From: Telmatocola sphagniphila
Lineage (GTDB): Bacteria; Planctomycetota; Planctomycetia; Gemmatales; Gemmataceae
DNA length: 32,000 bases
Direction of reading: 5' to 3'
Assembly (NCBI RefSeq): GCF_018398935.1
Contig: NZ_CP074694.1
Location: 3,990,001 to 4,022,000, forward strand
Shown: in pieces, positions 1,296 to 24,668 of the stretch
Layout: every line of letters begins with the position of its first letter
Numbering within the stretch: the first letter of the stretch is position 1
The notes under the pieces: generated by a model
Database searches by the model: none
What the model saw: only the letters and a program-made list of their open reading frames with translations
What the model was told of the DNA's origin: nothing
Made by a program: the position numbers and the translations under genes

Positions 1296-1432
1296 CCGGC
1301 GGGGTGGCACTGGTAAGCAAACCAAATCGACGCAAGTCGTTATTGAGTAACAGTTTGTGTGGCACTGGTTACTTGCTGTTTTTTTTATTGATCTTTGCGA
1401 ATTGTAGGACTCAATCCTCGTCCAATTTCCGG
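1296..1432. repeat. Left arm (137 bp) of copy A of the 475-bp hairpin-rich element, separated from its right arm by the group II intron
   Basis: Near-identical to 10618-10754 of the intact copy. It starts CCGGCGGGGTGGCACTGGTAA and contains a second GTGGCACTGG at 1359-1368. Confidence 0.85.
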
Positions 1433-1471
1433 ATAGGGCTAGGAGGAGTATAGGGCTCCCCCTTCCCTCCA

Positions 1472-1503
1472 AACCGGACGGGCGGATCTCCCGCATCCGG
1501 CTT
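1472..1503 (-). ncRNA. Group II intron domain V (catalytic hairpin)
   Basis: The minus strand reads AAGCCGGAUGCGGGAGAUCCGCCCGUCCGGUUU. It has an AGC triad at the 5' base of the stem, a GAGA (GNRA) tetraloop, and a 2-nt bulge on the 3' strand. It is followed by a domain VI-like stem AGGGGGAG/CUCCUCCU and the 3' end. Confidence 0.75.
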
Positions 1504-1517
1504 TCCGGTCAGTGGTC

Positions 1518-2885
1518 TTACCCTTTGAGGGATTGAGCTTCCAGACAGTGCGCCTGTTCCAGGGAGAACAGTCCCGCCTCGGCAAAGTAAGCTTTGGGCC
1601 ACTTGAAGTTGTCCATCATTCGGCTTCGACAATCGTGACCCAGACGACGACGCAGTATGCACCGCAGCCGCATTCGAGTCCATTTATCCACGTCCCGAAA
1701 GATCCCCTTTTTGCTGTGCTTGAAGTATCCGTACCAGCCTCGTAGCGTTACGCTCACGTCGCGGACGATCTGCGACAGGCTATCGCCTCTTTTCCGCTTC
1801 GTTTTCGCGCGAATCGCATCCCGAAGTTTCTCCAGACTTCGCTTCCGAGGATATATCAGACGTTGTCCTTTATAAACTCCAAAGCAATAGCCTAGAAATT
1901 CGAAACTCTCGATCTGCGTGTCCACCACTCTCGTCTTTTCCGGATGCAGTTGTAGCTTGGCCGATTCGCACCAGCGGCTCAACGTCGCCAGGGCTTCTTC
2001 CGCTTCCGCTCGACTGCGGCAGACGATCACCATGTCATCCGCGTATCGCACCATCCGAAAACCTAGGGATTCCATCAAATGGTCCAAAGGATCCAGATAG
2101 GCGTTACTCAACAACGGACTCAAAACCGCTCCTTGCGGCGCTCCCGAATCTGGCTCCCAACTCCCCATCGGCGAGAATATCTCGGCTTTCAGAAATTGTT
2201 CCACCAGACCTAGTAGCGTTCCGTCCGCGATCTTCCGCTTCAGCACATCCATCAACTGATCGTGATCGATCGCGTCGAAGTAGCCCTTGATGTCGACATC
2301 CACCAGATGCGTGCCTCCTTCTTTCAGAAGTCTGTCCACCTCTCGCAAGGCATTTTTGCAGCCCCGGCCCGGACGAAAGCCGTAACTATTCGAGGCGAAA
2401 TCCTTCTCGAAAATCGGTTCCAGCACCTGACGAATCGCGCCTTGAACCACCCGGTCTCGAACCGTCGGAATTCCTAGAGGACGGCCTTCTTCACTCCCCG
2501 GCTTCGGAATTACCGCTCGCCGGATCGCCGAAGGACGGTAGGTTCCGTCCCGTAAAGTCCGCTCCAAAGCTTCCAGGTTCTCGTCCAAATGATTGGCAAA
2601 CGCTTCGACACTCACATGATCCACGCCCGCTGAGCCCCCATTCGCCACGACTTTCGCCGATGACGACTTCAGGTTACTCTTCTTGCACACCTTGTCCATC
2701 AAGCTAAACCAGACGCCTCCTTTAACGCCCTCTTCGAGCGCGCTCAACATCCGATCGGTCCATACCGCAGGTTCCGTCCACGACCATTGCTCTCGGACCC
2801 TACTAACGGTACCCGAGAGTGGGTCGGTTTCTTCTCCGCCTTGTTTAGCCACTGGCACTGACGGCGGTTTCTCTTTCCTGCCCAT
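1518..2885 (-). CDS. Group II intron reverse transcriptase/maturase (about 455 aa from the ATG at 2885; the ORF track extends it to 3113)
   Basis: RT motifs are present: GGVWFSLMDKV...NGGSAGVDHVS, RRAVIPKPGSEEGRPLGIPTVRDRVVQ, GFRPGRGCKNA, DVDIKGYFD, GAPQGAVLSPLLSNAYL, and the catalytic VRYADDMVIV (YADD). The maturase/X region RGWYGYFKHS follows. There is no HNH/zinc-finger tail. I prefer the ATG at 2885 because GAGGAG lies 3 nt upstream. A start at 3113 would fall only 240 nt from the intron 5' end, inside ribozyme domain I. Confidence 0.9.
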   Translation of the reverse strand: MGRKEKPPSVPVAKQGGEETDPLSGTVSRVREQWSWTEPAVWTDRMLSALEEGVKGGVWFSLMDKVCKKSNLKSSSAKVVANGGSAGVDHVSVEAFANHLDENLEALERTLRDGTYRPSAIRRAVIPKPGSEEGRPLGIPTVRDRVVQGAIRQVLEPIFEKDFASNSYGFRPGRGCKNALREVDRLLKEGGTHLVDVDIKGYFDAIDHDQLMDVLKRKIADGTLLGLVEQFLKAEIFSPMGSWEPDSGAPQGAVLSPLLSNAYLDPLDHLMESLGFRMVRYADDMVIVCRSRAEAEEALATLSRWCESAKLQLHPEKTRVVDTQIESFEFLGYCFGVYKGQRLIYPRKRSLEKLRDAIRAKTKRKRGDSLSQIVRDVSVTLRGWYGYFKHSKKGIFRDVDKWTRMRLRCILRRRLGHDCRSRMMDNFKWPKAYFAEAGLFSLEQAHCLEAQSLKG

Positions 2886-3353
2886 AAACTCCTCGAAATC
2901 CACCTTCCTACGTCCCTTCGCTCCGTCGGCATTACCCGATTTCCACGCTACTATGGACGCTCTGACTTCCGACGCACAAGGCAATCGCCTTCCCCGGTGC
3001 CTCGGATATCCCCGCTTACATTCGATACCTTTCGCACTCCTTCCGCCTCCAACCACATCGGATACCTCCCTCGACTCGCTTGGGGCTTTATCTCGGGATA
3101 ATGCCGTCACCATAAGTTCTCCAACCGCTGGCGGACCTCTCGGTCAGTCCGGCTTTGCTAGCTTCGCCCTTAGCCACGCAGGCTCGCCGGTATCCGCTGC
3201 CGAAACGAGTTCACTTTATTGCGGACGAGATGCTCCCCTCGGGTTGCTCCCCACCCCGCCTCGCAGCGACGCAGTTACCTTCGGGTACAAAAGGCCAAGC
3301 CTCCTTTCGACAGGGAATCTCACCCTGCTAGTATCGAATAGTCACGGGCGCAC

Positions 3354-3691
3354 GTGGCACTGGCTATCTGCCAATGCGTGGGAGAAAAAAGTGCCAGAGA
3401 ATTGTCACCCTCTCAGGCACAAATTCGAGCAGAAAGAACGCTTTATTGCAGAAACGCACTCGCAGATGGCCAGTGCCACTCAAACCGTTACTGGATAACG
3501 ATATGCGCTGATTAAGAATGCTTGCCAGTGCCCCCCGCCGGGGCATGAATTCCTTCTGGGTTGAAATAGGGTGATTTGTTGTTGTAGGATGGGTGAGTTC
3601 TAAATGGCACTGTCAGATAGACAGTGCCACCCAAGTCTAGATTTTACATCGACTTGCGTTTATTGAGATGGGGTGCCAGTGTCACCCGTCG
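3354..3691. repeat. Right arm (338 bp) of copy A of the 475-bp element
   Basis: Near-identical to 10755-11092 and 5920-6257. It contains the hairpins CACTGGC-N5-GCCA(A/G)TG and GGCACTGTC-agata-GACAGTGCC. It ends GGGGTGCCAGTGTCACCCGTCG at 3691, about 90 bp upstream of the next gene. Confidence 0.85.
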
Positions 3692-3780
3692 CTTACTGAC
3701 GTGAAAGCACAGACAGACTTTGTCTTCCAGATCCATAACTTTATCCTATCTAATTTTCCACTCCCATTGGGACTCCTCCC

Positions 3781-4782
3781 ATGCGTGCTGCTTCTCTCTC
3801 GTTTCTGTTGCTGGCCGCGTTTCCGCTCTACTCTCAAGAGATTGTTGTCGGCGAGGGCAAACTCGAATTCAAATCGGGCGGCGAACTGGTCACCAGCTAT
3901 TACCATGGTAAGGAAGTCGCCAAACCTTACTGGTGGCCGTTGAATGCGCCGGGGGAAATTATGGTGACGCGAGGCTATCCCATCGTGAAGGATCTTCCCA
4001 AGGAAACCAGCAAGGATCACCCACACCACAAGTCGGGCTGGTTCTGCCACGGTGATGTCATTCCGGAAGGTTTGACGATCAAAACTAAAACGGCCGATCC
4101 GCACGTCAAAGGGGTCGACTTCTGGAGCGAGCTGCCCGGCCACGGCGTGATCCGCTGCACCAAAGTCGGTGAGATCACCAAGAAGCCGCACGAAGCAAGC
4201 GTGGTGACTTATAACGATTGGAACTCGGCCGACGGCGTCAAAGTTCTCGAAGAAGTTCGGACGATTACCCTCGTCGATTTGAATATGACCGGCCGGCTGA
4301 TCATTATGGATTCGGAACTGATCGCCAGCCAGTGCCCGATCACTTTCGGCGATACCAAGGAAGGTTCCTTCGGGGTGAGGATCAGCGATCAGATACGGGA
4401 AGTGATCGATGAGAAGAAAAAGATTCATGGCGGCACTCTGACTCAGGCGGACGGCAAAACGCTGGAGAAAAATGTCTGGGGTCAAGTCTCCCACTGGTGC
4501 GACTACTCGGGCAAGCAGGACGGGAAAGAGGCCGGGCTGACGATCTTTGCAAGTCCCAAGAACACGATTCCGACGGCCTGGCACTCTCGGGCTTACGGTT
4601 TAATGGCGGCCAATCCTTTCGGTCGCGAGGTGTCCGGCTTCCCATCGCAGAAGGGGAAGAAGGATCTGGTGAAGATTGCCCGGGGCGACAAATTGAAACT
4701 CACTTATGCGATCTACCTGCATACGGGAGATGTGAAGTCGGGTCAGGTGGCCGAGGCCTACGAGAAATTTGTCGGGCGTTAG
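3781..4782 (+). CDS. Secreted PmoA-like / DUF6807 family protein
   Basis: 333-aa ORF with an N-terminal signal peptide (MRAASLSFLLLAAFPLYSQE). Motifs typical of the PmoA (PF14100/DUF6807) family, from memory: KPYWWPL, DHPHHKSGWFCHGDV, VDFW, GDTKEGSFGVRISD, WHSRAYGLMAANPFG. Confidence 0.65.
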   Translation: MRAASLSFLLLAAFPLYSQEIVVGEGKLEFKSGGELVTSYYHGKEVAKPYWWPLNAPGEIMVTRGYPIVKDLPKETSKDHPHHKSGWFCHGDVIPEGLTIKTKTADPHVKGVDFWSELPGHGVIRCTKVGEITKKPHEASVVTYNDWNSADGVKVLEEVRTITLVDLNMTGRLIIMDSELIASQCPITFGDTKEGSFGVRISDQIREVIDEKKKIHGGTLTQADGKTLEKNVWGQVSHWCDYSGKQDGKEAGLTIFASPKNTIPTAWHSRAYGLMAANPFGREVSGFPSQKGKKDLVKIARGDKLKLTYAIYLHTGDVKSGQVAEAYEKFVGR

Positions 4783-5026
4783 CCGCTCGCTTGTCCGGGA
4801 CTTCCCTAGAGAGGTCATCAGATCATCATTTTTCACATGGTGGGAAACGCAATTTTGATGACCTTAGACTATTTCTCGGGAAATATCGCGTTTTTACCAT
4901 TGGTGTGATGAGACCGCCGAGAGTCTCATTCAACCACTCCATAGTACCAAATTTAAGCGGGAAACGCAATAAAAGTTGAGGGTGGACGTAGGATGCGATA
5001 CTGTAGTGCGGGCACTTATTTTGAAT

Positions 5027-5342
5027 ACGCACTGGCAGGTAGCCAGTGCCACACAGAACATTACCTGACAATGACTTACGGTGATTCTAAAGGGTTACCA
5101 GTGCCACCCGCCGCAGATGGGCAGTGCCACTCAAACCGTTACTGGATAACGACATGCGCTGATTAAGAATGCTTGCCAGTGCCACCCGCCGGGGCATGAA
5201 TTCCTTCTGGGTTGAAATAGGGTGATTTGTTGTTGTAGGATGGGTGAGTTCTAAATGGCACTGTCAGATAGACAGTGCCACCCAAGTCTAGATTTTACAT
5301 CGACTTGCGTTTATTGAGATGGGGTGCCAGTGTCACCCGTCG
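5027..5342. repeat. Copy B: mosaic part-copy of the element (a diverged, inverted left-arm unit fused to the last 231 bp of the right arm)
   Basis: 5027-5113 is a diverged reverse-complement version of the left arm (ACGCACTGGCAGGTAGCCAGTGCCACACAGAAC...TTACCAGTGCCACCCGCCG). 5112-5342 matches 3461-3691 and 10862-11092 and ends with the same ...GTCACCCGTCG terminus. Confidence 0.75.
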
Positions 5343-5919
5343 TCCACGACCATTGCTCTCGGACCCTACTAACGGTACCCGAGAGTGGGTCGGTTTCTTC
5401 TCCGCCTTGTTTAGCCACTGGCACTGACGGCGGTTTCTCTTTCCTGCCCATAAACTCCTCGAAATCCACCTTCCTACGTCCCTTCGCTCCGTCGGCATTA
5501 CCCGATTTCCACGCTACTATGGACGCTCTGACTTCCGACGCACAAGGCAATCGCCTTCCCCGGTGCCTCGGATATCCCCGCTTACATTCGATACCTTTCG
5601 CACTCCTTCCGCCTCCAACCACATCGGATACCTCCCTCGACTCGCTTGGGGCTTTATCTCGGGATAATGCCGTCACCATAAGTTCTCCAACCGCTGGCGG
5701 ACCTCTCGGTCAGTCCGGCTTTGCTAGCTTCGCCCTTAGCCACGCAGGCTCGCCGGTATCCGCTGCCGAAACGAGTTCACTTTATTGCGGACGAGATGCT
5801 CCCCTCGGGTTGCTCCCCACCCCGCCTCGCAGCGACGCAGTTACCTTCGGGTACAAAAGGCCAAGCCTCCTTTCGACAGGGAATCTCACCCTGCTAGTAT
5901 CGAATAGTCACGGGCGCAC
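5343..5919 (-). pseudogene. 3'-truncated group II intron copy (the 5' 577 nt only: ribozyme domains I-III and the first 37 RT codons)
   Basis: Appears identical to 2777-3353 (offset 2566). The 5' GTGCG end at 5919 abuts GTGGCACTGG exactly as at 3353/3354. At 5341-5343 it is joined to the right terminus of element copy B, and 2 nt (CG) are ambiguous at the junction. Confidence 0.9.
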
Positions 5920-6257
5920 GTGGCACTGGCTAACTGCCAGTGCGTGGGAGAAAAAAGTGCCAGAGAATTGTCACCCTCTCAGGCACAAATTCGAGCAGAA
6001 AGAACGCTTTATTGCAGAAACGCACTCGCAGATGGCCAGTGCCACTCAAACCGTTACTGGATAACGACATGCGCTGATTAAGAATGCTTGCCATTGCCAC
6101 CCGCCGGGGCATGAATTCCTTCTGGGTTGAAATAGGGTGATTTGTTGTTGTAGGATGGGTGAGTTCTAAATGGCACTGTCAGATAGACAGTGCCACCCAA
6201 GTCTAGATTTTACATCGACTTGCGTTTATTGAGATGGGGTGCCAGTGTCACCCGTCG
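5920..6257. repeat. Copy C: right arm (338 bp) of the element, attached to the truncated intron
   Basis: Same length and near-identical sequence as 3354-3691. It ends ...GTCACCCGTCG at 6257 and is followed by an unrelated flank (ACCTCGAGTTG). Confidence 0.85.
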
Positions 6258-6689
6258 ACCTCGAGTTGTAACTTTTGACATATCTTCGTAATAGCGATCT
6301 TTACAAGCCTCCTCAGGTGGGAAATCTTTCAGAAGGAAGAAATCATCACAGAACCAGAGGAATTCTTCGTCCATCCCAGGTATTATTGATCCAAGAAATG
6401 TTATAAGAAACGTATTTGTGACTGGTGATTTAAAACCCAAAGGACTTGCCATATACTCATGAGGCACATGCTCGATGATCGATTTGTTGCACGAAAGAAA
6501 TGTTGGCTTATCTCCGAAGACCCAAACCTTACGAATGAAAGGAATATGAGTTTGGAGGCTTCGGAGGGAGTACTGAATCTCAAAGTTATCAAAAGTAGAG
6601 TTTTTGAGAATGTAGAGTGCATCCGTATCGCTAATATCCCAAGAACTGGTTATGAAGGAATACTCCGAATTCTTTTCGATCTTTAAATT
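6258..6689 (-). pseudogene. AT-rich hypothetical ORF, 3'-truncated by element copy C (possible second immunity-type gene of the upstream toxin cassette)
   Basis: One minus-strand frame is open from 6689 to the element boundary: NLKIEKNSEYSFITSSWDISDTDALYILKNSTFDNFEIQYSLRSLQTHIPFIRKVWVFGDKPTFLSCNKSIIEHVPHEYMASPLGF...YYEDMSKVTTRG. The reading frame then runs into repeat sequence. There is no ATG near the 5' end, and the track starts at a GTG at 6467. I recognise no family. Confidence 0.4.
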
Positions 6690-6977: not shown

Positions 6978-7451
6978 CTAATTTAGTTTGGCTAATATTT
7001 CCACCAATTTACTTTGAACGAGATCTTTCATTTGAGGTGATGATGCAACTTTCATGAAGGCTGATTCGAAGGAGCCATCTGAGAAGCCGTCTTGATATGA
7101 TGCCACGTCCTCTGATGAAATTACGCCATCTTTTTCATATTTGTACGATAGAACGAGAGAAGGGTATAAATCATTATTGTTATCAGATTCAAATGAATTA
7201 TAATGCTCAACAAATCCAGCAGTAGCATAACAAGAATATTCAGCCACTGCTACTAATCCTGAAATCAGCAAAGATTTATCTTCGGGATCAAATTTATTTA
7301 AATTTTGAAGCAATTTTTTCAAGTCATTGTAACGTGGATTGCGCGAATCGCCCAAATTCAAATCCCGAATTCGCCCGAGCATTCTTATAACTCCAATAAC
7401 AACGGAGTTATAATAATGGAGGGCGACATTTTCTATCATCTCCGAGTGCAT
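6978..7451 (-). CDS. Hypothetical protein; candidate immunity protein for the toxin fragment immediately upstream
   Basis: 157-aa AT-rich ORF that starts 46 bp downstream of the toxin ORF on the same strand. This is the typical toxin-then-immunity order of Rhs/polymorphic toxin loci. I recognise no motif. Confidence 0.5.
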   Translation of the reverse strand: MHSEMIENVALHYYNSVVIGVIRMLGRIRDLNLGDSRNPRYNDLKKLLQNLNKFDPEDKSLLISGLVAVAEYSCYATAGFVEHYNSFESDNNNDLYPSLVLSYKYEKDGVISSEDVASYQDGFSDGSFESAFMKVASSPQMKDLVQSKLVEILAKLN

Positions 7452-7497: not shown

Positions 7498-8017
7498 TTA
7501 TCCGAATTCCCACCACTTTATAAGTTGTTTCAATTCTTGCAAATATTGTTTAGGCACACCCATGTTACTCAATTGCTGCAAATGACTTTTAATATGCTGT
7601 GAAATGTTTCCAGCTTCTTTAGCAAAAAAACCACTCTCAGTTAAGTGAATAATCTCCTTATGCATCCATTCTGGTATACGAATAGCAGGCCCGTTTGCTC
7701 GCACAAAATCGGTGGCTCCGTGAGCCAATGCGACCACTGTTTGTGGAACGTGATGCCTCGCCCAGCCCGTTATCTGCTTTAATTCATTAAACGCGCCAAC
7801 CTCAAAATAATGATTATGCGCCCAAATGCACCAGCTCCAAAAATCTTCTCCAACAAAATAAGTGTGATAGTCAGCGATTCTTAAGTTATAGACCGGTTCT
7901 ACTTCTTTGTCTTCGAATAAATCTGTGATCGATAACCACTCTTTTTCGTTGCCTTGTATTCGGTCTCCGATTTTCAAATATTTAGCAGGGAGCCAACCTC
8001 TTGTGCTATCAAAAAAA
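7498..8017 (-). pseudogene. 5'-truncated polymorphic-toxin C-terminal cassette (C-terminal half of a Hint domain plus an uncharacterised effector domain)
   Basis: The frame is open up to 8017. The translation ...FFDSTRGWLPAKYLKIGDRIQGNEKEWLSITD...VYNLRIADYHTYFVGEDFWSWCIWAHN parallels the Hint segment HPFYVPVRGWVPASELKVND...VYNIMVDQYHTYFVG...VWVHN of the gene at 1-1295. About 95 aa of unknown domain follow. It is cut inside the Hint domain by the IS end TGTACCCC at 8018. Confidence 0.75.
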
Positions 8018-8697
8018 TGTACCCCTCACGTAATATTTGCCGTTTTTTGCGATTTAATTCCTAGAGGAATTGGCCCTCTCTTGAACAAAAGATCGCCGTG
8101 ATCGACGAGAGCACGGCGTAAAGCAATTCGATCCATACGGCGAGATTCCTGCTCGAGCAACACTCCCGAAGGAGATATTCCTTCCTCCTTCATAGCTCGG
8201 TTCCGATGGATTTCAACAAGCTCTCGGAACTGATCGCGAGATTCTGTCGCGACTCTCTCCCGACTTTTCCAAAGCGTCTCGGGAGTAGGACCCAGACCTC
8301 CTCTCGGTCGAGCCAAGGCATTGGCTTCCCGTCGAGCCGCCTCCACATCCTCAGCGTTCCACACTTCCGGATGGCCTTCCCAGGCAGCTCTACGTTCGAT
8401 TCGACTTTTCAAAGATCCTATGCCCGCTTCGATCGCACCGTTATATTGTGGCCTCCTCGGCGGAGAGTACAAGCCGAACACGCCTTCTCGCTGCAAATAT
8501 TCTTGGACCACTTCGGCAATAAACGGCGAACGGCAGCGCCTCGTGCCGGACTACGCCGGCCCATCGCAACACCCCGGTCTCGGTCATCAGACCGCTCCAA
8601 AATTCCCCGGTATTCGGCAAAACACCCTTCAAAATGCCAAAATCCCTACAGCTTTAATTCGGCTACAAATGCGACCAGAATTCGGTTCGGGACAACT
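8018..8697 (-). mobile_element. 680-bp internally deleted remnant of an rve (DDE integrase-core) IS, copy 1
   Basis: About 96-97% identical by eye to 12653-13332. The termini are TGTACCCCTCACG... and ...CGGTTCGGGACA (TG...CA ends). It encodes only the C-terminal part of a transposase. Confidence 0.7.
8026..8511 (-). pseudogene. C-terminal fragment of an rve-domain transposase
   Basis: FIAEVVQEYLQREGVFGLYSPPRRPQYNGAIEAGIGSLKSRIERR matches the end of the integrase core (..P..PqtNGk.Er...lK), which contains the third acidic residue. The N-terminal HTH and the first two catalytic D residues are absent. Confidence 0.7.
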
Positions 8698-8983
8698 ACG
8701 CCGCATTCGCAACGATTTGCCCATGCCCGTCACCATCGCCACGCTGGGAACCGATGGGCCACCTTCGAAAATGAGCGAAGGTTACTTCCGCTTCCTCTGC
8801 CCCAACTGCGGCGAAATGCGGGCTACCGTCAACCCACGCAACAACCTCGCCCACTGCTTCGACTGCCAAAAAAACTTCAACAACATCGACCTCTTGCTCT
8901 CCCTCGATTACGACTTCCTCACCGCCGTCGATTTACTCGAACGCTGGCTCAACGAATATCAAACCCGACAAGCCAAAAAGTAA
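8669..8983 (+). CDS. Small (104 aa) CHC2/primase-like zinc-ribbon protein
   Basis: MRPEFGSGQLRRIRNDLPMPVTIATLG...GYFRFLCPNCGEMRATVNPRNNLAHCFDCQKNFNNIDLLLSLDYDFLTAVDLLERW. The CxxC...CxxC pattern with (F/A)xVNP...CFxC...IDL resembles the DnaG-type zf-CHC2 fold. The first 9 codons lie inside the IS-remnant end module. Confidence 0.5.
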   Translation: MRPEFGSGQLRRIRNDLPMPVTIATLGTDGPPSKMSEGYFRFLCPNCGEMRATVNPRNNLAHCFDCQKNFNNIDLLLSLDYDFLTAVDLLERWLNEYQTRQAKK

Positions 8984-9026: not shown

Positions 9027-9197
9027 CGGCGAACGGCAGCACCTCGCGCCGGACTACGCCGGCCCATCGCAACACCCCGGTCTCGGTCATCAGACCGCTC
9101 CAATATTCCCCGGTATTCGGCAAAACACCCTTCAAAATGCCAAAATCCCTACAGCTTTAATTCGGCTACAAATGCGACCAGAATTCGGTTCGGGACA
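9027..9197. repeat. Solo third copy of the 171-bp end module of the rve IS remnant
   Basis: Matches 8524-8694 and about 13158-13329 (CGGCGAACGGCAGC...AATGCGACCAGAATTCGGTTCGGGACA). It forms a 503-bp direct repeat with 8524-8694, bracketing the zinc-ribbon ORF. Confidence 0.8.
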
Positions 9198-9792
9198 TCT
9201 ATTGAAAGCTTATCGGACTACTTTCTCGAATACGGATGATGTCTGCCTCGTAGTGAAGGATGTCGGCGCTGAATCTTTCTACAGGAATGAATCGTTCGCA
9301 CCATTGATTGAAGAGCTGAAATTTGACACGAGAGCTCCAGAGATTCTTTACTTGAATGAGGAGCTATCGCAATCGGAACTTGCACGACTTTACTCCGCCT
9401 GCGATATACTCGTGCATCCCTATCGAGCGGAAGGTTTTGCTTTGCCCGTACTGGAAGCCATGGCATGCGGCAGACCTGTAATCGTCACCGCAGGTGGTCC
9501 AACGGATGATTTCGTGCCCAACTCCGCAGGTTGGAAGATACCTGCGAAAATTAAGTACTTTGGAAGTGATCGAGTGCATAGCGATGCAACCATCTCCCGT
9601 CCCTGGTGGCTGGAACCTGACGTTGATGAATTAAGCAAACTTTTGAGACAAAGTTTTTCTGAAGTTACATCCCACATTCCACAAGGAAACGCATCAGGTC
9701 GTATCGCTCATTCATTAACTTGGGATAGATCTGCGGTGATAATTGAAGATCGAGTTCGACAGCTTCGAACACGGTTCCCGATCCGATTTTAA
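9172..9792 (+). pseudogene. C-terminal half of a GT1/GT4-family glycosyltransferase, 5'-truncated at 9198 and fused in frame to an ATG from the IS end module
   Basis: From 9198 the translation reads LLKAYRTTFSNTDDVCLVVKDVG...LYLNEELSQSELARLYSACDILVHPYRAEGFALPVLEAMACGRPVIVTAGGPTDDFV (Glycos_transf_1 E-x7-E region). The N-terminal Rossmann half is missing. Codons 1-9 (MRPEFGSGH) come from the repeat. Confidence 0.75.
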
Positions 9793-10052
9793 AGCATTTC
9801 TTGAGAATAAAAACCGACTGCTATCGCCGAGCGGCAGAAAGTCAAAATCGTCCCAAGTTCCCATGGCGATTCAACGCGCCGAATCGCATGAATCCAATCA
9901 TAGTGTCAGTCGACTGTGAATTCGAACCACTATTTTGGGACGATACCAATCAGCCTTGATCTGATTTGACCCATGAAAATTCCACTCCAATGTTCGGACA
10001 TGTTTTTGACCAGGAAAATACACAATAAAAATATTTTCCATTATTCAAACGA

Positions 10053-10577
10053 TTATATATATTTTGAAATACTGTTAAAAAAGCCCCATGAAGTAATTTG
10101 ATATTGTCCGTAATTCACGTATTCACCTGTTTCTGTATATGGATTCTCTTCCAAGCAAATTCCATGCTCAACATCTTCAGTTGTCATTGCAAAGTCTTCA
10201 TTCACTAACTGCCAAACAGGCAATAAGTTGCGCAAAATTAATCCTGCGGGAACACGTATTCCCCCGACAAATTGATCAATGCTACTAAAGAGAATAACTT
10301 CAGTAGACATCAAAGTTTTGCTTAATCCGAACAATCCTGATAAAATTTTTGCGATTTCTGATTTACTCCAGTGATTCGACGATTGGGCATTTTCATTCTT
10401 GACTTTTTTGAAGAATGCTATTTTCAATTCTTCCGTGTGCTCAAGCGTGAGGAACAATTTTTCTGAAAACTCAAAGCCACATGCTTTATTCAATGATTTC
10501 AGCCAGTCTGCCTTTAGCAATCTTCCCCGTTGTCTTCTAATGCGAAGCTCAATATTTTTCAATCTTTCAGTAGACAT
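10053..10577 (-). CDS. Hypothetical protein (AT-rich, accessory)
   Basis: 174-aa ORF with an ATG start and coding-like composition. I recognise no motif. Its upstream region is replaced by element copy D, 40 bp from the start codon. Confidence 0.45.
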   Translation of the reverse strand: MSTERLKNIELRIRRQRGRLLKADWLKSLNKACGFEFSEKLFLTLEHTEELKIAFFKKVKNENAQSSNHWSKSEIAKILSGLFGLSKTLMSTEVILFSSIDQFVGGIRVPAGLILRNLLPVWQLVNEDFAMTTEDVEHGICLEENPYTETGEYVNYGQYQITSWGFFNSISKYI

Positions 10578-10617
10578 ATATTATGTTCTCCCACACATAT
10601 GCAATGATTAGTCATCC

Positions 10618-11092
10618 CCGGCGGAGTGGCACTGGTAACCTAACTAAATCAACTCAAGTCGTTATTGAGTAACAGTTTGGGTGGCACTGGTTACTTGCTG
10701 TTTTTTTTATTGATCTTTGCGAATTGTAGGACTCAATCCTCGTCCAATTTCCGTGTGGCACTGGCTAACTGCCAGTGCGTGGGAGAAAAAAGTGCCAAAG
10801 AATTGTCACCCTCTCAGGCACAAATTCGAGCAGAAAGAACGCTTTATTGCAGAAACGCACTCGCAGATGGCCAGTGCCACTCAAACCGTTACTGGATAAC
10901 GACATGCGCTGATTAAGAATGCTTGCCAGTGCCACCCGCCGGGGCATGAATTCCTTCTGGGTTGAAATAGGGTGTTTTGTTGTTGTAGGATGGGTGAGTT
11001 CTAAATGGCACTGTCGGATAGACAGTGCCACTCAAGTCTAGATTTTACATCGACTTGCGTTTATTGAGATGGGGTGCCAGTGTCACCCGTCG
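10618..11092. mobile_element. Copy D: intact, intron-less 475-bp non-coding hairpin-rich element (MITE/REP-cluster-like)
   Basis: Left end CCGGCGGAGTGGCACTGG. Right end CCAGTGTCACCCGTCG (imperfect inverted repeat, about 15 of 18 positions with one indel). An internal perfect inverse copy of the left end lies at 10926-10942 (CCAGTGCCACCCGCCGG). Five exact GTGGCACTGG/CCAGTGCCAC 10-mers and two strong hairpins are present. The empty intron homing site is at 10754/10755. There is no credible ORF. Confidence 0.8.
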
Positions 11093-11587
11093 CCGCCAGA
11101 ATTGCTCGCGTTGGAGGTTGCGTTCGTGTCGAGGCATGGAAAGTCTCCGTTAAAGAAACTCTCCAGACTAGCAAAGTACGCAAGGACGCATTTCACAGCA
11201 CGGTTACGGAAACCGTGGCCAGCCGCAATGCCATCGAGCAGGTCTTCAAGGACGTCAAGGAAGTTTGGAGAGCCGGTCAGCAGCAATTGCGAAACCTGCA
11301 CGCCAACATCGGCGCGTTTCACATGAACCTGTGGATGATGACTTTGACCGAACTGTGGGCTTGGAATCAACCGCAAAGGAAGTTAGTGGATCGTGCCGAT
11401 CGTCCCTGGGATAATCAGCCGCGACGGCCTTCTCATAACGATCGACGCAAGTCGTTGCTAAAGCTGATTTTGCAAGAAGAATTTCGAGCACTTCCGCAAA
11501 ACGGGCCCGGAACACGAAAATACAAAAAAGCCGTCAAACGCTTGTTCCTAATGGCCTGCTCCGCTTAGATTATCTGGGAAAGTGCAG
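11093..11587 (+). pseudogene. 3' fragment of an IS701-like DDE transposase element
   Basis: 11209-11587 is homologous to 14765-15139 of the full element. This includes ETVASRNAIEQVFKDVKEVWRAGQQQLRNLHANIGAFHMNLWMMTLTELWAW and the terminal TTAGATTATCTGGGAAAGTGCAG. The 5' side is cut by element copy D at 11092. Confidence 0.8.
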
Positions 11588-12652: not shown

Positions 12653-13332
12653 CTGTACCCCTCACGTAATATTTGCCGTTTTTTGCGATTTAATTACTAG
12701 AGGAATTGGCCCTCTCTTGAACAAAAGATCGCCGTGATCGACGAGAGCACGGCGTAAAGCATTTCGATCGATACGGCGAGCTTCCTGCTCGAGCAACACT
12801 CCCGAAGGAGATTTTCCTTCCTCCTCCATAGCTCGGTTCCGATCGATTTCAACAAGCTCTCGGAACTGATCGCGAGATTCTGTCGCGACTCTCTCCCGAC
12901 TTTTCCAAAGCGTCTCGGGAGTAGGACCCAGACCTCCTCTCGGTCGAGCCAAGGCATTGGCTTCCCGTCGAGCCGCCTCCACATCCTCAGCGTTCCACAC
13001 TTCCGGATGGCCTTCCCAGGCAGCTCTACGTTCGATTCGACTTTTCAAAGATCCTATGCCCGCTTCGATCGCACCGTTATATTGTGGCCTCCTCGGCGGA
13101 GAGTACAAGCCGAACACGCCTTCTCGCTGCAAAATTCTTGGACCACTTCGGCAATAAACGGTGACCGGCAGCGCCTCGTGCCGGACTACGCCGGCCCATC
13201 GCAGCACCCCGGTCTCAGTCATCAGACCGCTCCAAAATTCCCCGGAATTCGGCAAAACACCTTTCAAAATACCAAAATCCCTACAGCTTTAATTCGGCTA
13301 CAAATGCGACCAGAATTCGGTTCGGGACAACT
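12653..13332 (-). mobile_element. 680-bp internally deleted remnant of the rve IS, copy 2
   Basis: Same termini and length as 8018-8697. It carries the same transposase C-terminal fragment (ORF 12662-13267) with a 1-nt difference that fuses frames. The end module at about 13158-13329 has an outward ATG at 13304. Confidence 0.7.
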
Positions 13333-13662: not shown

Positions 13663-15139
13663 CTGCACTTTCCCAGAAAGTCTTAACAATTTAGGGGTAT
13701 TGGGAATTTGAATTGCTCTTGAAAAAGCCGGTGCTTCCGTCAGCATGGTGGTGCTTAAAAAACATCAAGCCAGGAAGGCACCGGCCATGGAAGTATCTCG
13801 TTTTCCCTCCTTTCTGTCCAGCGCTTTTTCCGCCCTGGTCTTCTTTTTGGATGCTCGAATCCAGTCGCTAACCGTGCGTATCTTCCGCGGCATGTTCCTC
13901 GCTCAGGACCAGCGACGCACCGCCTCCCGATGGTTCCGAGCCGCCGCTATCCGTCGAAAGTACAAGTCGGCCTACCGGCACCTTGCAGCGGTCGGTCGAG
14001 AATCCCTTTCGATGAGTACCGCCGTGGGACGACTGGTTCTCAAACACCCGGCGGCCCAATCCGAGAAGATCGTGATTGCTCTGGATGACACCCTCACCAA
14101 ACGTTACGGTCCGAAGGTCGAAGGGGCCGGAATTCACCACAATCCGACTCCGGGTCCGATCGGACAGTTGCTCGAATACGGGCAGAACTTCGTCGTGGCG
14201 GCTTTATTGGCCTGGCATCCTCTCCACGGCATTATCGGCTTGCCTTGGCGAGCCCAGTTATACGTCCGCCAGAAAGAGGTCGCGACGCTTCCCCGCAAGT
14301 ACCAGTGGAAGTTTCGGACCAAGCTGCAACTGGCGGTGGAGATCCTGCAATGGCTCTCGAAGTCTTTGTTTTCTCCGGGGAAAGCAGTCTGGATCGTGGC
14401 GGATGGCGGCTATGCGAAGAAACCGATTCTGCGGGCGTGTCGGCAGTTGAACTTCACATTGATCAGTCGGCTCCGCAAGGATGCCGCCCTATACGAGTTG
14501 CCCTCTCCCTCCCAAGGTCGGGGGCGTCCCCGCAAGTACGGAGAGAAGCGAATCGACTTGGCCAAGCGAGCGGCTCATGCCCGGGGATGGTCGTCGGCCT
14601 CCCTGCAGTTGTACGGTCGCCCAGAAGTCAAAACGTACAAGAGTTTTCTGGCGACCTGGAAGTCGGCGGAGGGAGTCATCCGCGTGGTTCTGGTTAAAGA
14701 GAAAAAAGGGTGGATCGCTTTCTTCTCGACGAATCCGGAGGCGACGGTGGCCCAGATCCTGGAAACCGTGGCCAGCCGCAATGCCATTGAGCAGGTCTTC
14801 AAGGACGTCAAGGAAGTTTGGAGAGCCGGTCAGCAGCAATTGCGAAACCTGCACGCCAACATCGGCGCGTTTCACATGAACCTGTGGATGATGACGCTCA
14901 CCGAATTGTGGGCCTGGGATCAGCCGCAAAAGAAGTTGGTGGATCGTTCGGATCGACCTTGGGACAATCGGCCGAACGGCCTTCTCATAACGATCGACGC
15001 AAGTCCTTGCTGAAATTGATTTTGCACGAGGAATATCGAACGCTTCCGCTCAACGGACCCGGAAACCGAAAATACCGAAAGGCCATGAAACGCTTGTTCC
15101 AAATTGCCCGTGCCACTTAGATTATCCGGGAAAGTGCAG
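13663..15139 (+). mobile_element. IS701-like (IS4-superfamily DDE) insertion sequence, 1477 bp
   Basis: Terminal inverted repeats are CTGCACTTTCCCAGAAAGTCTTAAC (13663-13687) and the reverse complement of 15115-15139, CTGCACTTTCCCGGATAATCTAAGT. The first 12 nt match perfectly. A single transposase ORF lies inside. I could not see a target-site duplication. Confidence 0.8.
13745..15013 (+). CDS. DDE transposase (IS701-like), C-terminus probably frameshifted
   Basis: 422-aa ORF with VIALDDTLTKRYGPKVEGAG, VWIVADGGYAK and GRGRPRKYG motifs typical of IS701/IS4-like DDE transposases. Relative to the fragment at 11093-11587, it has a 1-nt deletion near 14975. This switches frame: the expected tail ...RPSHNDRRKSLLKLILHEEYRTLP...QIARAT continues in ORF 14818-15120. 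Confidence 0.75.
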   Translation: MVVLKKHQARKAPAMEVSRFPSFLSSAFSALVFFLDARIQSLTVRIFRGMFLAQDQRRTASRWFRAAAIRRKYKSAYRHLAAVGRESLSMSTAVGRLVLKHPAAQSEKIVIALDDTLTKRYGPKVEGAGIHHNPTPGPIGQLLEYGQNFVVAALLAWHPLHGIIGLPWRAQLYVRQKEVATLPRKYQWKFRTKLQLAVEILQWLSKSLFSPGKAVWIVADGGYAKKPILRACRQLNFTLISRLRKDAALYELPSPSQGRGRPRKYGEKRIDLAKRAAHARGWSSASLQLYGRPEVKTYKSFLATWKSAEGVIRVVLVKEKKGWIAFFSTNPEATVAQILETVASRNAIEQVFKDVKEVWRAGQQQLRNLHANIGAFHMNLWMMTLTELWAWDQPQKKLVDRSDRPWDNRPNGLLITIDASPC

Positions 15140-15204: not shown

Positions 15205-15531
15205 CTATCTCCCATCAATGCGCCCATATAGATTTTCCTTCAATCTCACACCATCGCGCTGCGGCGAGACCTCAACCGTCAGATGCCTGTTGTTTAGTAG
15301 ACTCTTCCTTTCGAAGCGTTCGGTAAAGAACGGTAAGTGCAATTCCGCCGCGATCAGACTAAACGCCAGATATCCCATTTCGTCGATGATCAGCAAATCG
15401 ACTCTATTCAAGGGCTGCAGGAACCGGTCGAATTGATGATACTTTTTGGCTTGTTCCAGATTTTTGGCTACGTCGGTGGCTGTAAAGAAGTGGACGCGTC
15501 GTCCGTATCGGCAATCCCGCAGCGACGGCAA
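15205..15531 (-). pseudogene. IstB-like (IS21 helper ATPase) remnant
   Basis: RRVHFFTATDVAKNLEQAK...LNRVDLLIIDEMGYLAFSLIAAELHLPFFTERFERKSLL matches the Walker B/sensor region of IstB (dLLiiDElGy...a.llf.li..RyE..S). The Walker A region is missing and the C-terminus is frameshifted. Confidence 0.7.
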
Positions 15532-15882: not shown

Positions 15883-16257
15883 TTGAGAAAGCTCCTCCAG
15901 GAAAGTTTAGAACGTCTTATTCCGCAGGATGTTGGGATAAGAGTTACATGCCGAAACGGAATCGTGGTCATGGAAGTACCCTTGGGTGCAAGAAAATATG
16001 TTTCGCCCGCTGAATTTGCTCGGATAACGGGTCTATCGTTAGCCACGATCCATCGGCGAATCAAGGAAGGTTCCATCCAAGTCTCACAGCCTGGCGGCAA
16101 ACGTTGTCGGATTTTGATTTCGTTAGAGCATTTTTTCACTGAGGCCCAAGAACAAGCTCCATCGGCAAACATGTCCACAACTACCCCTGTTGTGTCAAGT
16201 CATAGCTTTCAGCAAGTTCCTCCACGGCGAAAAACGCAACCCCAATGGAGGAAGTAA
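15883..16257 (+). CDS. Excisionase-type helix-turn-helix DNA-binding protein (probable start ATG 15970)
   Basis: KYVSPAEFARITGLSLATIHRRIKEGSIQVSQPGGKRCRILIS is a typical MerR/excisionase-family HTH (HTH_17-like). It lies immediately upstream of the integrase and overlaps it by 13 nt. Confidence 0.7.
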   Translation: MRKLLQESLERLIPQDVGIRVTCRNGIVVMEVPLGARKYVSPAEFARITGLSLATIHRRIKEGSIQVSQPGGKRCRILISLEHFFTEAQEQAPSANMSTTTPVVSSHSFQQVPPRRKTQPQWRK

Positions 16258-17501
16258 CTCAACATAAGAAAGGACGAACCATGCCAGCTCGAAGACAGCA
16301 AGAGGTTCTGAAACGCCAATTCTATACATGGATAATCTACCAGCGTGACGGTATCTGGTACGCGGATGGCCGATCCGGAAATCCCTTCAACCTGGGTCGT
16401 AAATCACTTGGAAGCGCCGATAAAAATGAAGCCTTAGTAGCACTTGATGAACTCGATCGTCGAAAGGCAGTAGAGCATAATTTGGCCGATCGCTCAATCC
16501 TTGAACCGCAAAACTCAGGGCTCAGTATCAAGGATGGTAGGAAAGAGTATGAATCATTCATTGGGCGAGCTCCTGTGGCGGGTGGGACGCGATTTAGCAC
16601 GAAAAAGCGATATCGGACCGTCCTGGATAAGTTCGAAAAATTTTGTTTTAAACGAGGTATCTCCTACTGGAACCAGGTTAATTCTCGCGTGCTGGAACAG
16701 TACGTCACGCAGTTGGCGGCCGATGATTATGCGCAGGCATCACAGTATTTGGAAGTCACGACCCTGAAACAAGTAGTTTGCTTCCTGATTGATCGCGGCC
16801 ATCTGCCCTCAACTGCAAGAATAAAACTGAAATTGCGCAAGCCCCAAGGAACAACTACGTATTGCTATTCGGGAACCGAAGTACAGGCGATGATCGAGCG
16901 TTGCGAAAGTATTCCCGGATTACACTGGCTTCGCGATGTAATCGTGTTCCTGGCGTTTACTGGGCTGCGAATCTCGGAACTTGCCTCGTTGCGATGGGCG
17001 GATTTAAATTTTGAGGCGGGCCTGATCCACCTCAACGACGAAATGAACTTGGCGCGAAACCATCGGCAACGGGAAGTGCGGAGGACGAAGAGTGGACGGT
17101 CTCGAATGTTGCCCATCCACTCGCAACTGTCAGCAGTAATCCAGGAATTACCCCGTAATCGAGACGGCTATCTCCTCCATGGCCCGCTCGGTGGGCGATT
17201 GAAGCCGGATACCGTTCGCAACATCCTCGTCCGCGACGTTCTTGAACCTTTGGCCCCACGCTTTCCTGCAACCGAATATGGGAAGGGCTTTTGCGATGGC
17301 CGCCTGCATTCCTTCCGCCACTACTTTTGTTCGCGGTGCGTAGCGAACGGGATCCCCGAGCTGACAATTAAAGAGTGGCTGGGCCATCGCGATAGCAAGA
17401 TGGTTCAGCACTATTATCACTTATCGAATACGGAATCACGAAGGCAGATAGAGAAACTGTCTTTCGAAGATACCTCCCGGGAGGTCCGGGAGGTAGGTTG
17501 A
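16245..17501 (+). CDS. Tyrosine recombinase / phage-type integrase
   Basis: 418 aa. FLAFTGLRISELASLRWADLNF carries the catalytic R. HSFRHYFCSRCVANGIPELTIKEWLGHRDSKMVQHYYH carries H-x-x-R ... H ... Y. It ends 160 bp from the 3' end of tRNA-Ser. Confidence 0.9.
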   Translation: MEEVTQHKKGRTMPARRQQEVLKRQFYTWIIYQRDGIWYADGRSGNPFNLGRKSLGSADKNEALVALDELDRRKAVEHNLADRSILEPQNSGLSIKDGRKEYESFIGRAPVAGGTRFSTKKRYRTVLDKFEKFCFKRGISYWNQVNSRVLEQYVTQLAADDYAQASQYLEVTTLKQVVCFLIDRGHLPSTARIKLKLRKPQGTTTYCYSGTEVQAMIERCESIPGLHWLRDVIVFLAFTGLRISELASLRWADLNFEAGLIHLNDEMNLARNHRQREVRRTKSGRSRMLPIHSQLSAVIQELPRNRDGYLLHGPLGGRLKPDTVRNILVRDVLEPLAPRFPATEYGKGFCDGRLHSFRHYFCSRCVANGIPELTIKEWLGHRDSKMVQHYYHLSNTESRRQIEKLSFEDTSREVREVG

Positions 17502-17660
17502 ACGTTATAGGTCTGGAGGTCGCTGCGGAGAAGAAGGAGAAATCTGAGAGTTACTGGGACATCGATTGACACAGTATTGGCACAGGCGACTGTGCCAATC
17601 AGATGGGATAAGCGTAAATCCAATAATTACAGGGGTTTACGGAAAGGCTCGAAAATGATA

Positions 17661-17747
17661 CGGAGAGGGGGGGATTCGAACCCCCGATAGGGTTTCCCCT
17701 ATATCGGTTTTCGAAACCGACGCATTCAACCGCTCTGCCACCTCTCC
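17661..17747 (-). tRNA. tRNA-Ser (anticodon CGA)
   Basis: The minus strand reads GGAGAGGTGGCAGAGCGGTTGAATGCGTCGGTTTCGAAAACCGATATAGGGGAAACCCTATCGGGGGTTCGAATCCCCCCCTCTCCG. It has a 7-bp acceptor stem, the anticodon loop TTCGAAA, a long variable arm (class II tRNA), and a GTTCGAATC T-loop. CCA is not encoded. Confidence 0.9.
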
Positions 17748-17807
17748 AATAATGCGGGAGGGACATTCTACAAGGCAAACATGTTCGGGGAAAGACGTTT
17801 CTCCCAC

Positions 17808-24189: not shown

Positions 24190-24668
24190 GGGCGAAATTT
24201 TTACCTTTCTTCCCAGATTCACTCCGCCCTCCGCAATCCCCGCGGTTCAATTTTCAGAACTTTAACCGCAGAGAGCGCCGAGTACACAGAGAAATACACA
24301 ACAACACTCAACGAATAGGCTTCCTTCCCGTTGAAAATGCTTTGCATTTTCAACACTCACAGTACTGAGCACTGGCCCCACAGACTTAAACCTCTCTGTG
24401 CTCTCTGTGTGCTCTGTGGTGAAATTCTCTTTCCTCCTCCGCGGCGGTTCAATTTTCAGAACTTTAACCGCAGAGAGCGCCGAGTACACAGAGAAATACA
24501 CAACAACACTCAACGAATAGGCTTCCTTCCCGTTGAAAATGCTTTGCATTTTCAACACTCACAGTACTGAGCACTGGCCCCACAGACTTAAACCTCTCTG
24601 TGCTCTCTGTGTGCTCTGTGGTGAAATTCTCTTTCCACCTCCGCGGCGGTTTCCTCCCACAGAGAGCT
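24190..24668. repeat. About 2.3 tandem copies of a 202-bp structured repeat in the divergent moxR / PQQ-propeller intergenic region
   Basis: 24244-24445 and 24446-24647 are essentially identical, with partial units on both sides. Each unit holds a perfect palindrome GTTGAAAATGC-tt-GCATTTTCAAC (24330-24354 and 24532-24556). That palindrome is flanked by mutually inverted CACAGAG-rich arms: AACCGCAGAGAGCGCCGAGTACACAGAGAAA and CCTCTCTGTGCTCTCTGTGTGCTCTGTGGTG. Confidence 0.9.

Follow-up and report, generated by a model that had tools for sequence, protein, structure and literature searches.

A 474-bp non-coding repeat of Telmatocola sphagniphila, probably a MITE-type transposon, with hairpins occupied by a group IIC-like intron

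Features of the locus

A stretch of 32,000 nt from Telmatocola sphagniphila (contig NZ_CP074694.1, positions 3,990,001 to 4,022,000 of the forward strand; hereafter the window, numbered from its first letter) was analyzed with respect to a hairpin-rich repeat of which an intact copy lies at 10619-11092. Copies of this repeat, named A to D, occupy the left half of the window together with a group II intron, insertion sequences (IS) and fragments of toxin genes, and several of these features end exactly at a terminus of the repeat. The positions of all features are collected in Table 1. The element itself is probably a non-autonomous transposon of the kind called MITE (for miniature inverted-repeat transposable element).

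Table 1. Positions of the repeat copies, their parts and the neighbouring features (window coordinates unless a contig is named; ORF, open reading frame)
Feature	Position	Strand	Description
Copy A, left 135 bp	1297-1431	+	upstream of the intron; adjoins a minus-strand toxin ORF (Rhs-core/HINT) that is truncated
Copy A, right 338 bp	3354-3691	+	97.6% identical to 10755-11093
Copy C	5112-5342	+	right 231 bp; terminus joined to intron interior via a common CG
Copy B	5920-6257	+	338 bp of the right part, behind the first (5') 577 bp of the intron; its terminus interrupts an AT-rich ORF on the minus strand
Copy D	10619-11092	+	intact 474-bp unit, intron site empty; boundaries common to A, D and L023
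Extra right arm	5023-5110	-	diverged (77%), ends CCAGTGCCACCCGCCG; joined via a common CG to the interior of copy C; junction read against 10852-10882
Right flank, copy A	beyond 3691		upstream region of DUF6807 gene annotated 'PmoA family'
Right flank, copy C	beyond 5342		group II intron interior, equivalent to position 2775
Right flank, copy B	beyond 6257	-	interior of AT-rich ORF 6213-6689
Right flank, copy D	beyond 11092		interior of IS701-family transposase gene
Left arm	10619-10690	+	terminal repeat CGGCGGAGTGGCACTGG and inner GGGTGGCACTGG motif 55 nt inward
Right arm 1	10871-10941	-	ends in terminal-type repeat CCAGTGCCACCCGCCG; with the left arm closes a 323-bp foldback core
Right arm 2	11022-11092	-	right terminus of the element, ...GGGTGCCAGTGTCACCCGTCG, ending CCAGTGTCACCCGTCG; 71 nt, homologous to right arm 1
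Internal hairpin 1	10755-10780		GTGGCACTGGC-taac-tGCCAGTGC; minus strand ends ...CCAGTGCCAC
Internal hairpin 2	11007-11031		TGGCACTGTC-ggata-GACAGTGCCA
Group II intron	1432-3353	-	1,922 bp, reverse transcriptase and maturase, no endonuclease domain; inserted in copy A right after CCAGTGCCAC
Intron domain V	1433-1505		Rfam Intron_gpII
Intron 5' fragment	5343-5919	-	equivalent to 2777-3353, inside the 917-bp, 99.5% identical duplicate
IS4-family IS	608-2178 of contig L023		1.57-kb insert, own inverted repeats CAACGCCGTTACCC, 9-bp duplication GGTGGCACT
Rhs-associated core C-terminus with HINT domain	2-1294	-	cut exactly at copy A left end
Pretoxin-HINT fragment	7498-7977	-	
680-bp repeat	8018-8697 = 12654-13332		
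175-bp repeat	8524-8698 = 9027-9201		
Weak YxiF-like (immunity-type) gene	10053-10577	-	40 nt from copy D
Second IS701-family copy	11093-11587		cut by copy D right end
Complete IS701-family element	13663-15139		21-nt inverted repeats (CTGCACTTTCCC...)
IstB (IS21-family) fragment	15205-15531	-	beside the complete IS701-family element
tRNA-Ser (CGA)	17660-17748		by a 418-aa tyrosine integrase and an HTH_17 protein (region 15883-17748)

Copies and boundaries of the repeat unit

An exact-match count of the 27-mer that forms the right terminus, GAGATGGGGTGCCAGTGTCACCCGTCG, gave four copies in the window, ending at 3691, 5342, 6257 and 11092; by chance none is expected, and there were 0 matches in any shuffle. 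At every right end the homology breaks within 1 base of ...CACCCGTCG, as observed both in the self-comparison of the window and in the alignment of the copies, and the sequences beyond the four right ends are mutually unrelated. The left end CCGGCGGRGTGGCACTGG was found at 1296 and 10618. These termini agree with the original prediction, which was made from the sequence alone and had overlooked the group II intron that splits one copy as well as the role of a repeated 10-mer as the insertion site of that intron. This one split copy, copy A, has its left end at 1296 and its right end at 3691.

A complete fifth copy, 97-99% identical and with both termini identical, was found on a peat metagenome contig (L023) through a 60-aa 'hypothetical protein', a spurious ORF that lies within the element. 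Nothing in the window matches the flanks of this copy. Because this copy sets the common left boundary at CGGCGG, the unit extends from 10619 to 11092 (474 bp, 5'-CGGCGG...CCCGTCG-3'), and the element is a discrete unit as predicted, with a length of 474 bp in place of 475 bp. In total, five right and three left junctions were obtained, with flanks that are all different and with one of the copies (L023) on an independent metagenome contig.

All four window copies have the same orientation. Copy D shares 96.8-98.5% identity with the other copies, pairwise identity among the copies is 96.8-99.1%, and the three full-length copies (A, D and L023) are ~97% identical. The differences between copies lie mostly in the first 62 nt of the element. 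When element positions 1-62 were compared (10619-10680, 1297-1358 and the L023 copy), the between-copy differences were concentrated about ten-fold between the two motifs of the left arm, in contrast to the right arms, which are nearly invariant across copies.

The block 5341-6257, which consists of an intron piece and an element piece, is a 917-bp duplicate of 2775-3691 with 99.5% identity, so the four right ends do not represent four clean independent insertions. The predicted unrelatedness of the four flanks was found again, and it is in part a product of duplication and recombination. Likewise, the earlier statement that the boundary signifies transposition or site-specific insertion and not duplication is borne out as to a discrete, multi-copy unit with sharp ends; its exclusion of duplication was too strong, given this segmental duplicate and the duplicated flank genes described below.

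Arms, motifs and folding of the element

The element is built from three homologous arms of ~71 nt, one left and two right, each of which contains two GTGGCACTGG motifs 55 nt apart. At the tips, a terminal inverted repeat of 16-19 nt is present, in which CGGCGG(N)GTGGCACTGG faces CCAGTG(C/T)CACCCG(C/T)CG; the terminal repeat sequence of the element is CGGCGGNGTGGCACTGG. The imperfect terminal inverted repeats that had been described are thus found again, and in a larger frame: 10612-10690 and 10871-10949 form an inverted repeat of 79 nt with 77% complementarity. The inverse copy of the left end noted earlier at 10926-10942 is real and part of this repeat, and it differs from a perfect copy by a 1-nt indel. 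Of the proposed 325-bp core with a 150-bp tail, the foldback core is retained; the whole fits better with one left arm and a pair of mutually homologous right arms in a 474-bp unit that would move whole, as the three full-length copies (97% identical) suggest.

The 8-mer core of the motif, GGCACTGG, occurs 17 times in the window compared with 0.6 expected, and 15 of the 17 occurrences lie within copies of the element. Four of the motifs are half-sites that pair only across ~240 nt, and each end of the element likely carries two protein-binding sites, judging from the arrangement of the motifs.

A terminal hairpin, GGGTG-ccagtgt-CACCC, can be read from the sequence 4 nt from the right tip, as stated in the original prediction. 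The predicted minimum free energy of copy D as RNA was -197 kcal/mol for the plus strand and -184 kcal/mol for the minus strand, with a folding z of about -11 on both strands relative to shuffled sequence. The equal folding of both strands is as expected for a DNA palindrome.

The element encodes nothing. Its ORFs are short and conserved neither among the copies, as had been predicted, nor in an 85%-identical relative (L003, see below). A six-frame protein search of the element found nothing, and its 88-aa ORF matched in protein databases only the spurious ORF of another copy of the element. When the window was searched against Rfam, as had been proposed for the element, only the intron, the tRNA and noise were returned at both gathering and permissive thresholds, with no match to the element. 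In the alignment with L003, none of 44 predicted base pairs showed a compensatory change, and several pairs are broken by L003 substitutions. A structured RNA under selection was therefore rejected, since covariation is absent.

An outward-reading ATG was observed in the right terminus (...GAGATGGGGTGCC) at 11069, 3668 and 5319, and ORFs that start with it extend into the flank (3668-3943, 11069-11326). The same outward direction is taken by a promoter-like site at 10962-10991. Together, the two may lead to read-out expression of downstream genes.

Copies and relatives outside the window

The L023 copy is split by an IS4-family IS at the hairpin that corresponds to 11007-11031. This longer copy was considered as an autonomous parent of the element and rejected, since the insert is an IS4-family IS with its own inverted repeats and a 9-bp duplication (Table 1). 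A second, independent insertion of this IS into the motif, at ...AGTGCCACT, is indicated on a Joint Genome Institute (JGI) contig, as judged from the C-terminus of protein P0129 (QRRYPYLLGT), which corresponds to the IS end. The IS4-family IS may prefer the sequence GTGSCACT.

Further contigs (L003, L009, L010, L024 and L025) were found through relatives of the intron-encoded protein, and on these the intron lies again within the same repeat family. In L003 and L009, the intron follows ...GCCAGAGCCAC in an element of ~210 bp that is about 85% identical to that of the window; the shorter element of L003 starts with CGACCGCGAGTGACACTGG. In L010, the intron follows the other hairpin (11007-11031 type), and contig L025 begins only 7 nt (GTGCCAC) ahead of the intron 5' end. 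The most telling case is L024, where the intron is 76% identical and sits in an element of ~270 bp that is not alignable to the window by BLAST. The L024 element keeps the terminal repeat ...GGCGGGTGGCAC.../...GTGCCACCCCGCCG, beginning with ...TGGCGGGTGGCACTGTC and ending with GACTGTGCCACCCCGCCG. Because the terminal repeat is retained despite an unalignable interior, the ends of the element are kept while the interior is free to change, as would be expected for ends recognized by an enzyme such as a transposase.

A short-read contig from the same strain (L027) is 100% identical to 9172-10655. One of its ends lies exactly 30 nt into a known repeat, following the k-1 rule of a 31-mer assembly graph, and the other lies 37 nt into copy D. 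Copy A differs from copy D at element positions 21-36. Because L027 breaks at this point and copy A lacks the 30-mer of copy D (10626-10655), the assembly behaviour points to another copy in the genome, beyond those of the window, that carries this 30-mer.

A scan of a genome collection with the 19-nt right terminus gave one chance match in a Bacillota metagenome-assembled genome; evidently that collection lacks or masks the source genome, and the scan is therefore silent on copy number. A metagenome scan with a 20-nt internal anchor gave five chance matches only. In IMG/VR, the right terminus had no match and the inner terminal repeat had 12 chance matches. A distant BLAST search of the unit against plasmids and phages gave no match, and a literature search on the motif strings returned primers only. 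The element has so far been seen only in Telmatocola sphagniphila and close peat-bog relatives.

A group IIC-like intron at the hairpins of the element

The insertion point of the intron in copy A was placed between positions equivalent to 10754 and 10755 by comparison with copy D, in which the site is empty. The intron-encoded protein contains only RVT_1 and GIIM domains, plus a TIGR04416 match, and is identical to QVL30339.1 (Telmatocola sphagniphila). Three other intron copies are present in the genome, two with the paralogues QVL30272.1 and QVL31436.1 and one at QVL32482.

Introns of this lineage (intron-encoded proteins at least 71% identical) sit after hairpins of one repeat family, directly behind ...CCAGTG(C/G)CAC, and use three different hairpins of the family in the window and on four metagenome contigs. 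All six intron insertion sites lie directly after an inverted repeat; in a 60%-identical relative (L026), the intron follows an ordinary terminator-like hairpin. Group IIC introns are located downstream of terminator motifs or other inverted repeats (PMC1702495). The window intron shares with them a protein with reverse transcriptase and maturase domains and no endonuclease domain, the domain V core and insertion after an inverted repeat. It differs in that its lineage uses the hairpins of one repeat family and not terminators. On the strength of protein and insertion sites, its behaviour is IIC-like, with the repeat motif as a putative homing site.

At least five intron insertions at three hairpins, in three element lineages, were observed, plus the two insertions of IS4-family IS. 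Such recurrent capture of a hairpin motif by an IIC-like intron provides a compact natural case of mobile elements targeting one another.

Probable mobility of the element and alternative explanations

The features described above are best accounted for if the element is a non-autonomous DNA transposon of the MITE or foldback type that is moved in trans, and this is considered probable. Prokaryotic MITEs are 50-800 bp long; their inverted repeats measure 10-15 bp as a minimum, and their duplications 2-10 bp (PMC11602168). The element is non-coding, and its 474 bp fall within the limits of about 50-800 bp; its terminal inverted repeat exceeds the minimum length of 10-15 bp, extends to 79 nt at 77% complementarity and is kept in L024; and identical ends with unrelated flanks recur at the five right and three left junctions. 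For transposition itself, this evidence is indirect.

A transposase encoded elsewhere in the genome would bind the GTGGCACTGG motifs, two per arm, and with the outer ends paired the 474-bp unit would be moved whole, inserting perhaps at CG dinucleotides with a duplication of at most 2 bp. In the simplest account, ordinary insertion would then be followed by homologous recombination between copies in the same orientation, by which the left flank of one copy is fused to the right flank of another and the intervening DNA is lost. Adjacent deletions by the transposition machinery would have the same outcome, and segmental duplication also contributes to the pattern of copies. The mismatched flanks of every copy could thus be due to recombination or adjacent deletion between copies, together with segmental duplication. 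The hairpins of the element have in turn become landing sites, for the IIC-like intron just after ...CCAGTGCCAC and for the IS4-family IS in relatives.

The part played by the CG dinucleotide comes from the junctions. This dinucleotide stands at the start and at the end of every copy, and in the two junctions for which the target is known, exactly CG is common to element and target (intron, ggttcCG joined to tccacg; element interior, cactCG joined to cagatgg). This is only a lead: the 2 bp may have been duplicated on insertion, strands may be exchanged there, or the CG may belong to the element.

Several observations weigh against transposition as the origin of the copies. Neither A, D nor L023 has a flanking direct repeat of 3 bp or more, although all copies may be recombinants, and no empty site was recovered for any full-length copy; an IS701 'empty site' for the right junction of copy D was not located, the paralogue being too diverged there. 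No longer copy that encodes a transposase was found, either in the window, where no transposase with matching ends is present (as the original prediction had stated), or in the genome and metagenome scans, which gave chance matches only. The left and right flanks never fit together in any copy. Directly beyond the right ends stand truncated genes (an unknown ORF, the intron, IS701 and, in L009, an aldehyde dehydrogenase), and their missing halves are not on the left. With such mismatched flanks, secondary rearrangements or a one-ended mechanism are needed. In addition, part of the pattern is plain segmental duplication, the known high-identity copies in this genome are all within 10 kb, and the sharing of CG was seen at only two junctions and would arise by chance roughly once in 250 cases.

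The shortage of target duplications could also be explained by conservative site-specific recombination, in which a serine (IS607-like) or tyrosine recombinase would bind the repeated subterminal motifs and insert a circularised unit by strand exchange at a common CG, leaving no true duplication. This is considered unlikely. It would account for the finding of no duplication longer than 2 bp, for CG at both termini of all copies and at both known-target junctions, and for the multiple subterminal repeats at each end, and IS607-family transposases bind several subterminal repeats and produce no target duplications. However, elements of the IS607 type are without terminal inverted repeats, whereas those of the present element are clear and are kept in a distant relative. 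The only recombinase in the window is the island integrase by tRNA-Ser, with no copies of the motif near it, and a DDE enzyme that makes a 2-bp duplication would account just as well for the CG at both ends.

The clustering of the copies raises another, somewhat less probable explanation, that of no autonomous mobility at all. An island of toxin cassettes, IS elements and an intron, prone to rearrangement, would have broken repeatedly at what now look like sharp ends, with palindromes provoking breakage or template switching and segmental duplication spreading the pieces. The high-identity copies of the genome that all lie within 10 kb, the duplicated 917-bp block, the flank genes duplicated elsewhere in the genome, the flanks that never pair, and the position of the island beside tRNA-Ser with an integrase and Rhs/HINT toxin fragments are all consistent with it. 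Yet both termini recur to the nucleotide on the separate contig L023, where the flanks are unrelated, and purely local breakpoints, named at the outset as what would overturn the prediction, are not what was observed there. Breakpoints would also not conserve the terminal inverted repeat in a relative with an unalignable interior (L024), and the assembly-graph argument from L027 points to a further copy outside the window.

The hairpins themselves suggest single-stranded mobilisation by an HUH (Y1) enzyme, either as an element derived from IS200/IS605 or as a REPIN-like cluster of repetitive extragenic palindromes (REP) served by a REP-associated tyrosine transposase (RAYT), with recognition of the GTGG-CACTGG hairpins. 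A hairpin-rich element with one hairpin 4 nt from the right tip, without target duplication and with a motif that resembles a REP foot (GTGG, then stem) would agree with this, and the hairpins are evidently accessible as single strands, since the IIC-like intron uses them. The mechanism is nevertheless improbable. Palindrome-associated elements derived from IS200/IS605 lack terminal inverted repeats and insert 3' of a conserved target of 4-5 nt at one end. Here no conserved target of this size and no tetranucleotide common to the flanks was found (left flanks AAAC, TCCC and CAAG; right flanks CTTA, ACCT, TCCA, CCGC and ACCC), and the ends are clear, true inverted repeats over 70 nt. REP and REPIN with RAYT consist of palindromes of 20-40 nt in doublets of about 100 nt, have a high copy number and bracket a RAYT gene. 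The 474-bp unit far exceeds this size, and the pairing of its four half-sites spans ~240 nt, in contrast to the short hairpins of REP. The tip hairpin gives no support to an IS200-type mechanism.

A primarily functional role in cis or as structured RNA, with the element as a mobile promoter, as an invertible switch flanked by the inverted repeats or as a repeated small RNA, is very improbable: ends that often lie just upstream of outward-reading genes (DUF6807 gene 89 nt from the right end of A, YxiF-like gene 40 nt from the left end of D, ankyrin gene 67 nt from the right end of L023), the one outward promoter-like site (10962-10991) and the very stable predicted structure are set against absent covariation with pairs broken by L003 substitutions, no Rfam match, equal folding of both strands, other copies that cut genes, and a promoter count of 2 that is barely higher than the 0.7 of shuffled sequence.

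Further candidates were tried and rejected. The IS701-family element was rejected as mobiliser of the repeat since its ends (CTGCACTTTCCC...) are unrelated. A sigma-54 promoter motif (TGGCAC-N5-TTGC) has the wrong spacing. An integron attC site or a cluster of integrase arm sites was rejected on account of the excessive size of the unit, the absence of the motif around the integrase and a boundary that falls outside a core spacer. For an IS6/IS26 end with an 8-bp duplication, the neighbouring 8-mers are inverted and not direct. An IS110/IS1111-type element (bridge-RNA guided), which would have no terminal inverted repeats, one conserved target sequence and a structured guide RNA, is not supported: the present element has inverted repeats and unrelated flanks, and an RNA finds support neither in Rfam nor in covariation.

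Relation to known elements

Bacterial MITEs such as Correia/CREE of Neisseria, ERIC/IRU, RUP of Streptococcus and Nezha of cyanobacteria resemble the element in that they are small and non-coding, have terminal inverted repeats and near-identical copies, and form a long hairpin. They are likewise placed by gene starts or within genes and depend on a transposase in trans, as is presumed for the element. The element differs in that no duplication longer than 2 bp and no partner IS were found, and in its ~71-nt arms with two motifs each and a doubled right arm. It is without sequence similarity in the plasmid, phage, IMG/VR and metagenome collections searched.

Several transposase-binding repeats per end are known from the multiple terminal repeats of the IS21 family and from the inverted repeat/direct repeat (IR/DR) ends of Tc1-type transposons (Sleeping Beauty). 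The element resembles them in that a short motif is present twice per end, as an outer and an inner copy separated by tens of bases and embedded in a longer inverted repeat, but its termini are CG...CG and not TG...CA, a TA target is absent, and a related transposase was not found. No motif of the element lies near the IstB fragment of the window (15205-15531).

The same-orientation clustered copies, mismatched flanks and truncated neighbour genes are also reminiscent of IS26/IS6-type behaviour, and the element motif GGCACTG resembles the first 7 nt of the IS26 inverted repeat (GGCACTGTTGCAAA). In the element, however, this motif lies 9 nt inside the terminus, the rest of the repeat is unlike, the adjacent 8-nt stretches are inverted and there is no 8-bp duplication. 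No IS6-family transposase was seen.

The element apparently represents a new family of an ordinary kind, the MITE, and leaves the current understanding of MITE function unchanged. A more far-reaching proposal can be put forward only tentatively and is rather doubtful: a new transposon family, with two GTGGCACTGG sites per ~71-nt arm and insertion at CG without a conventional duplication, together with a group IIC intron lineage that homes to its hairpin motif as a parasite of a parasite, and with an IS4-family IS that apparently shares this preference. If CG-specific, duplication-free insertion were true, it would be a pointer to an unrecognised transposase family. The mobile elements of planctomycetes are poorly catalogued, and this one has no match in the collections searched. 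Those who annotate Gemmataceae genomes can mask or track it as a defined repeat unit.

The surrounding genomic island

An integrated island appears to take up positions 1 to about 17,600, and the region with tRNA-Ser and the integrase is probably one border of this genomic island, which covers the left half of the window. Much of the disorder of the 17-kb island is explained by the element, including the facts that one copy is split, the intron truncated, a transposase gene cut and a toxin fragment orphaned. The island also contains an array of orphan polymorphic-toxin pieces with small companion genes.

For the PmoA-family (DUF6807) gene at 3781-4782, which lies between copies A and C, a paralogue with 98% identity (QVL30055.1) is present elsewhere in the genome. 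The 134-aa protein to the right of copy B (the annotated form of ORF 6978-7451) occurs twice in the genome (QVL30270.1 = QVL30341.1), and QVL30270.1 is two accession numbers from QVL30272.1, another intron copy. Blocks bounded by element ends seem to have been duplicated.

The neighbour proteins match QVL30340.1 to QVL30346.1 (locus tags KIH39_15935 to 15965), and genes encoding DUF1501 and DUF1549/1553 proteins are present in the window, fitting a planctomycete. A perfect tandem duplication with a 202-bp unit (99.5-100% identical) was observed at 24242-24651, between genes encoding a MoxR-type ATPase and a PQQ/BamB-like beta-propeller protein.

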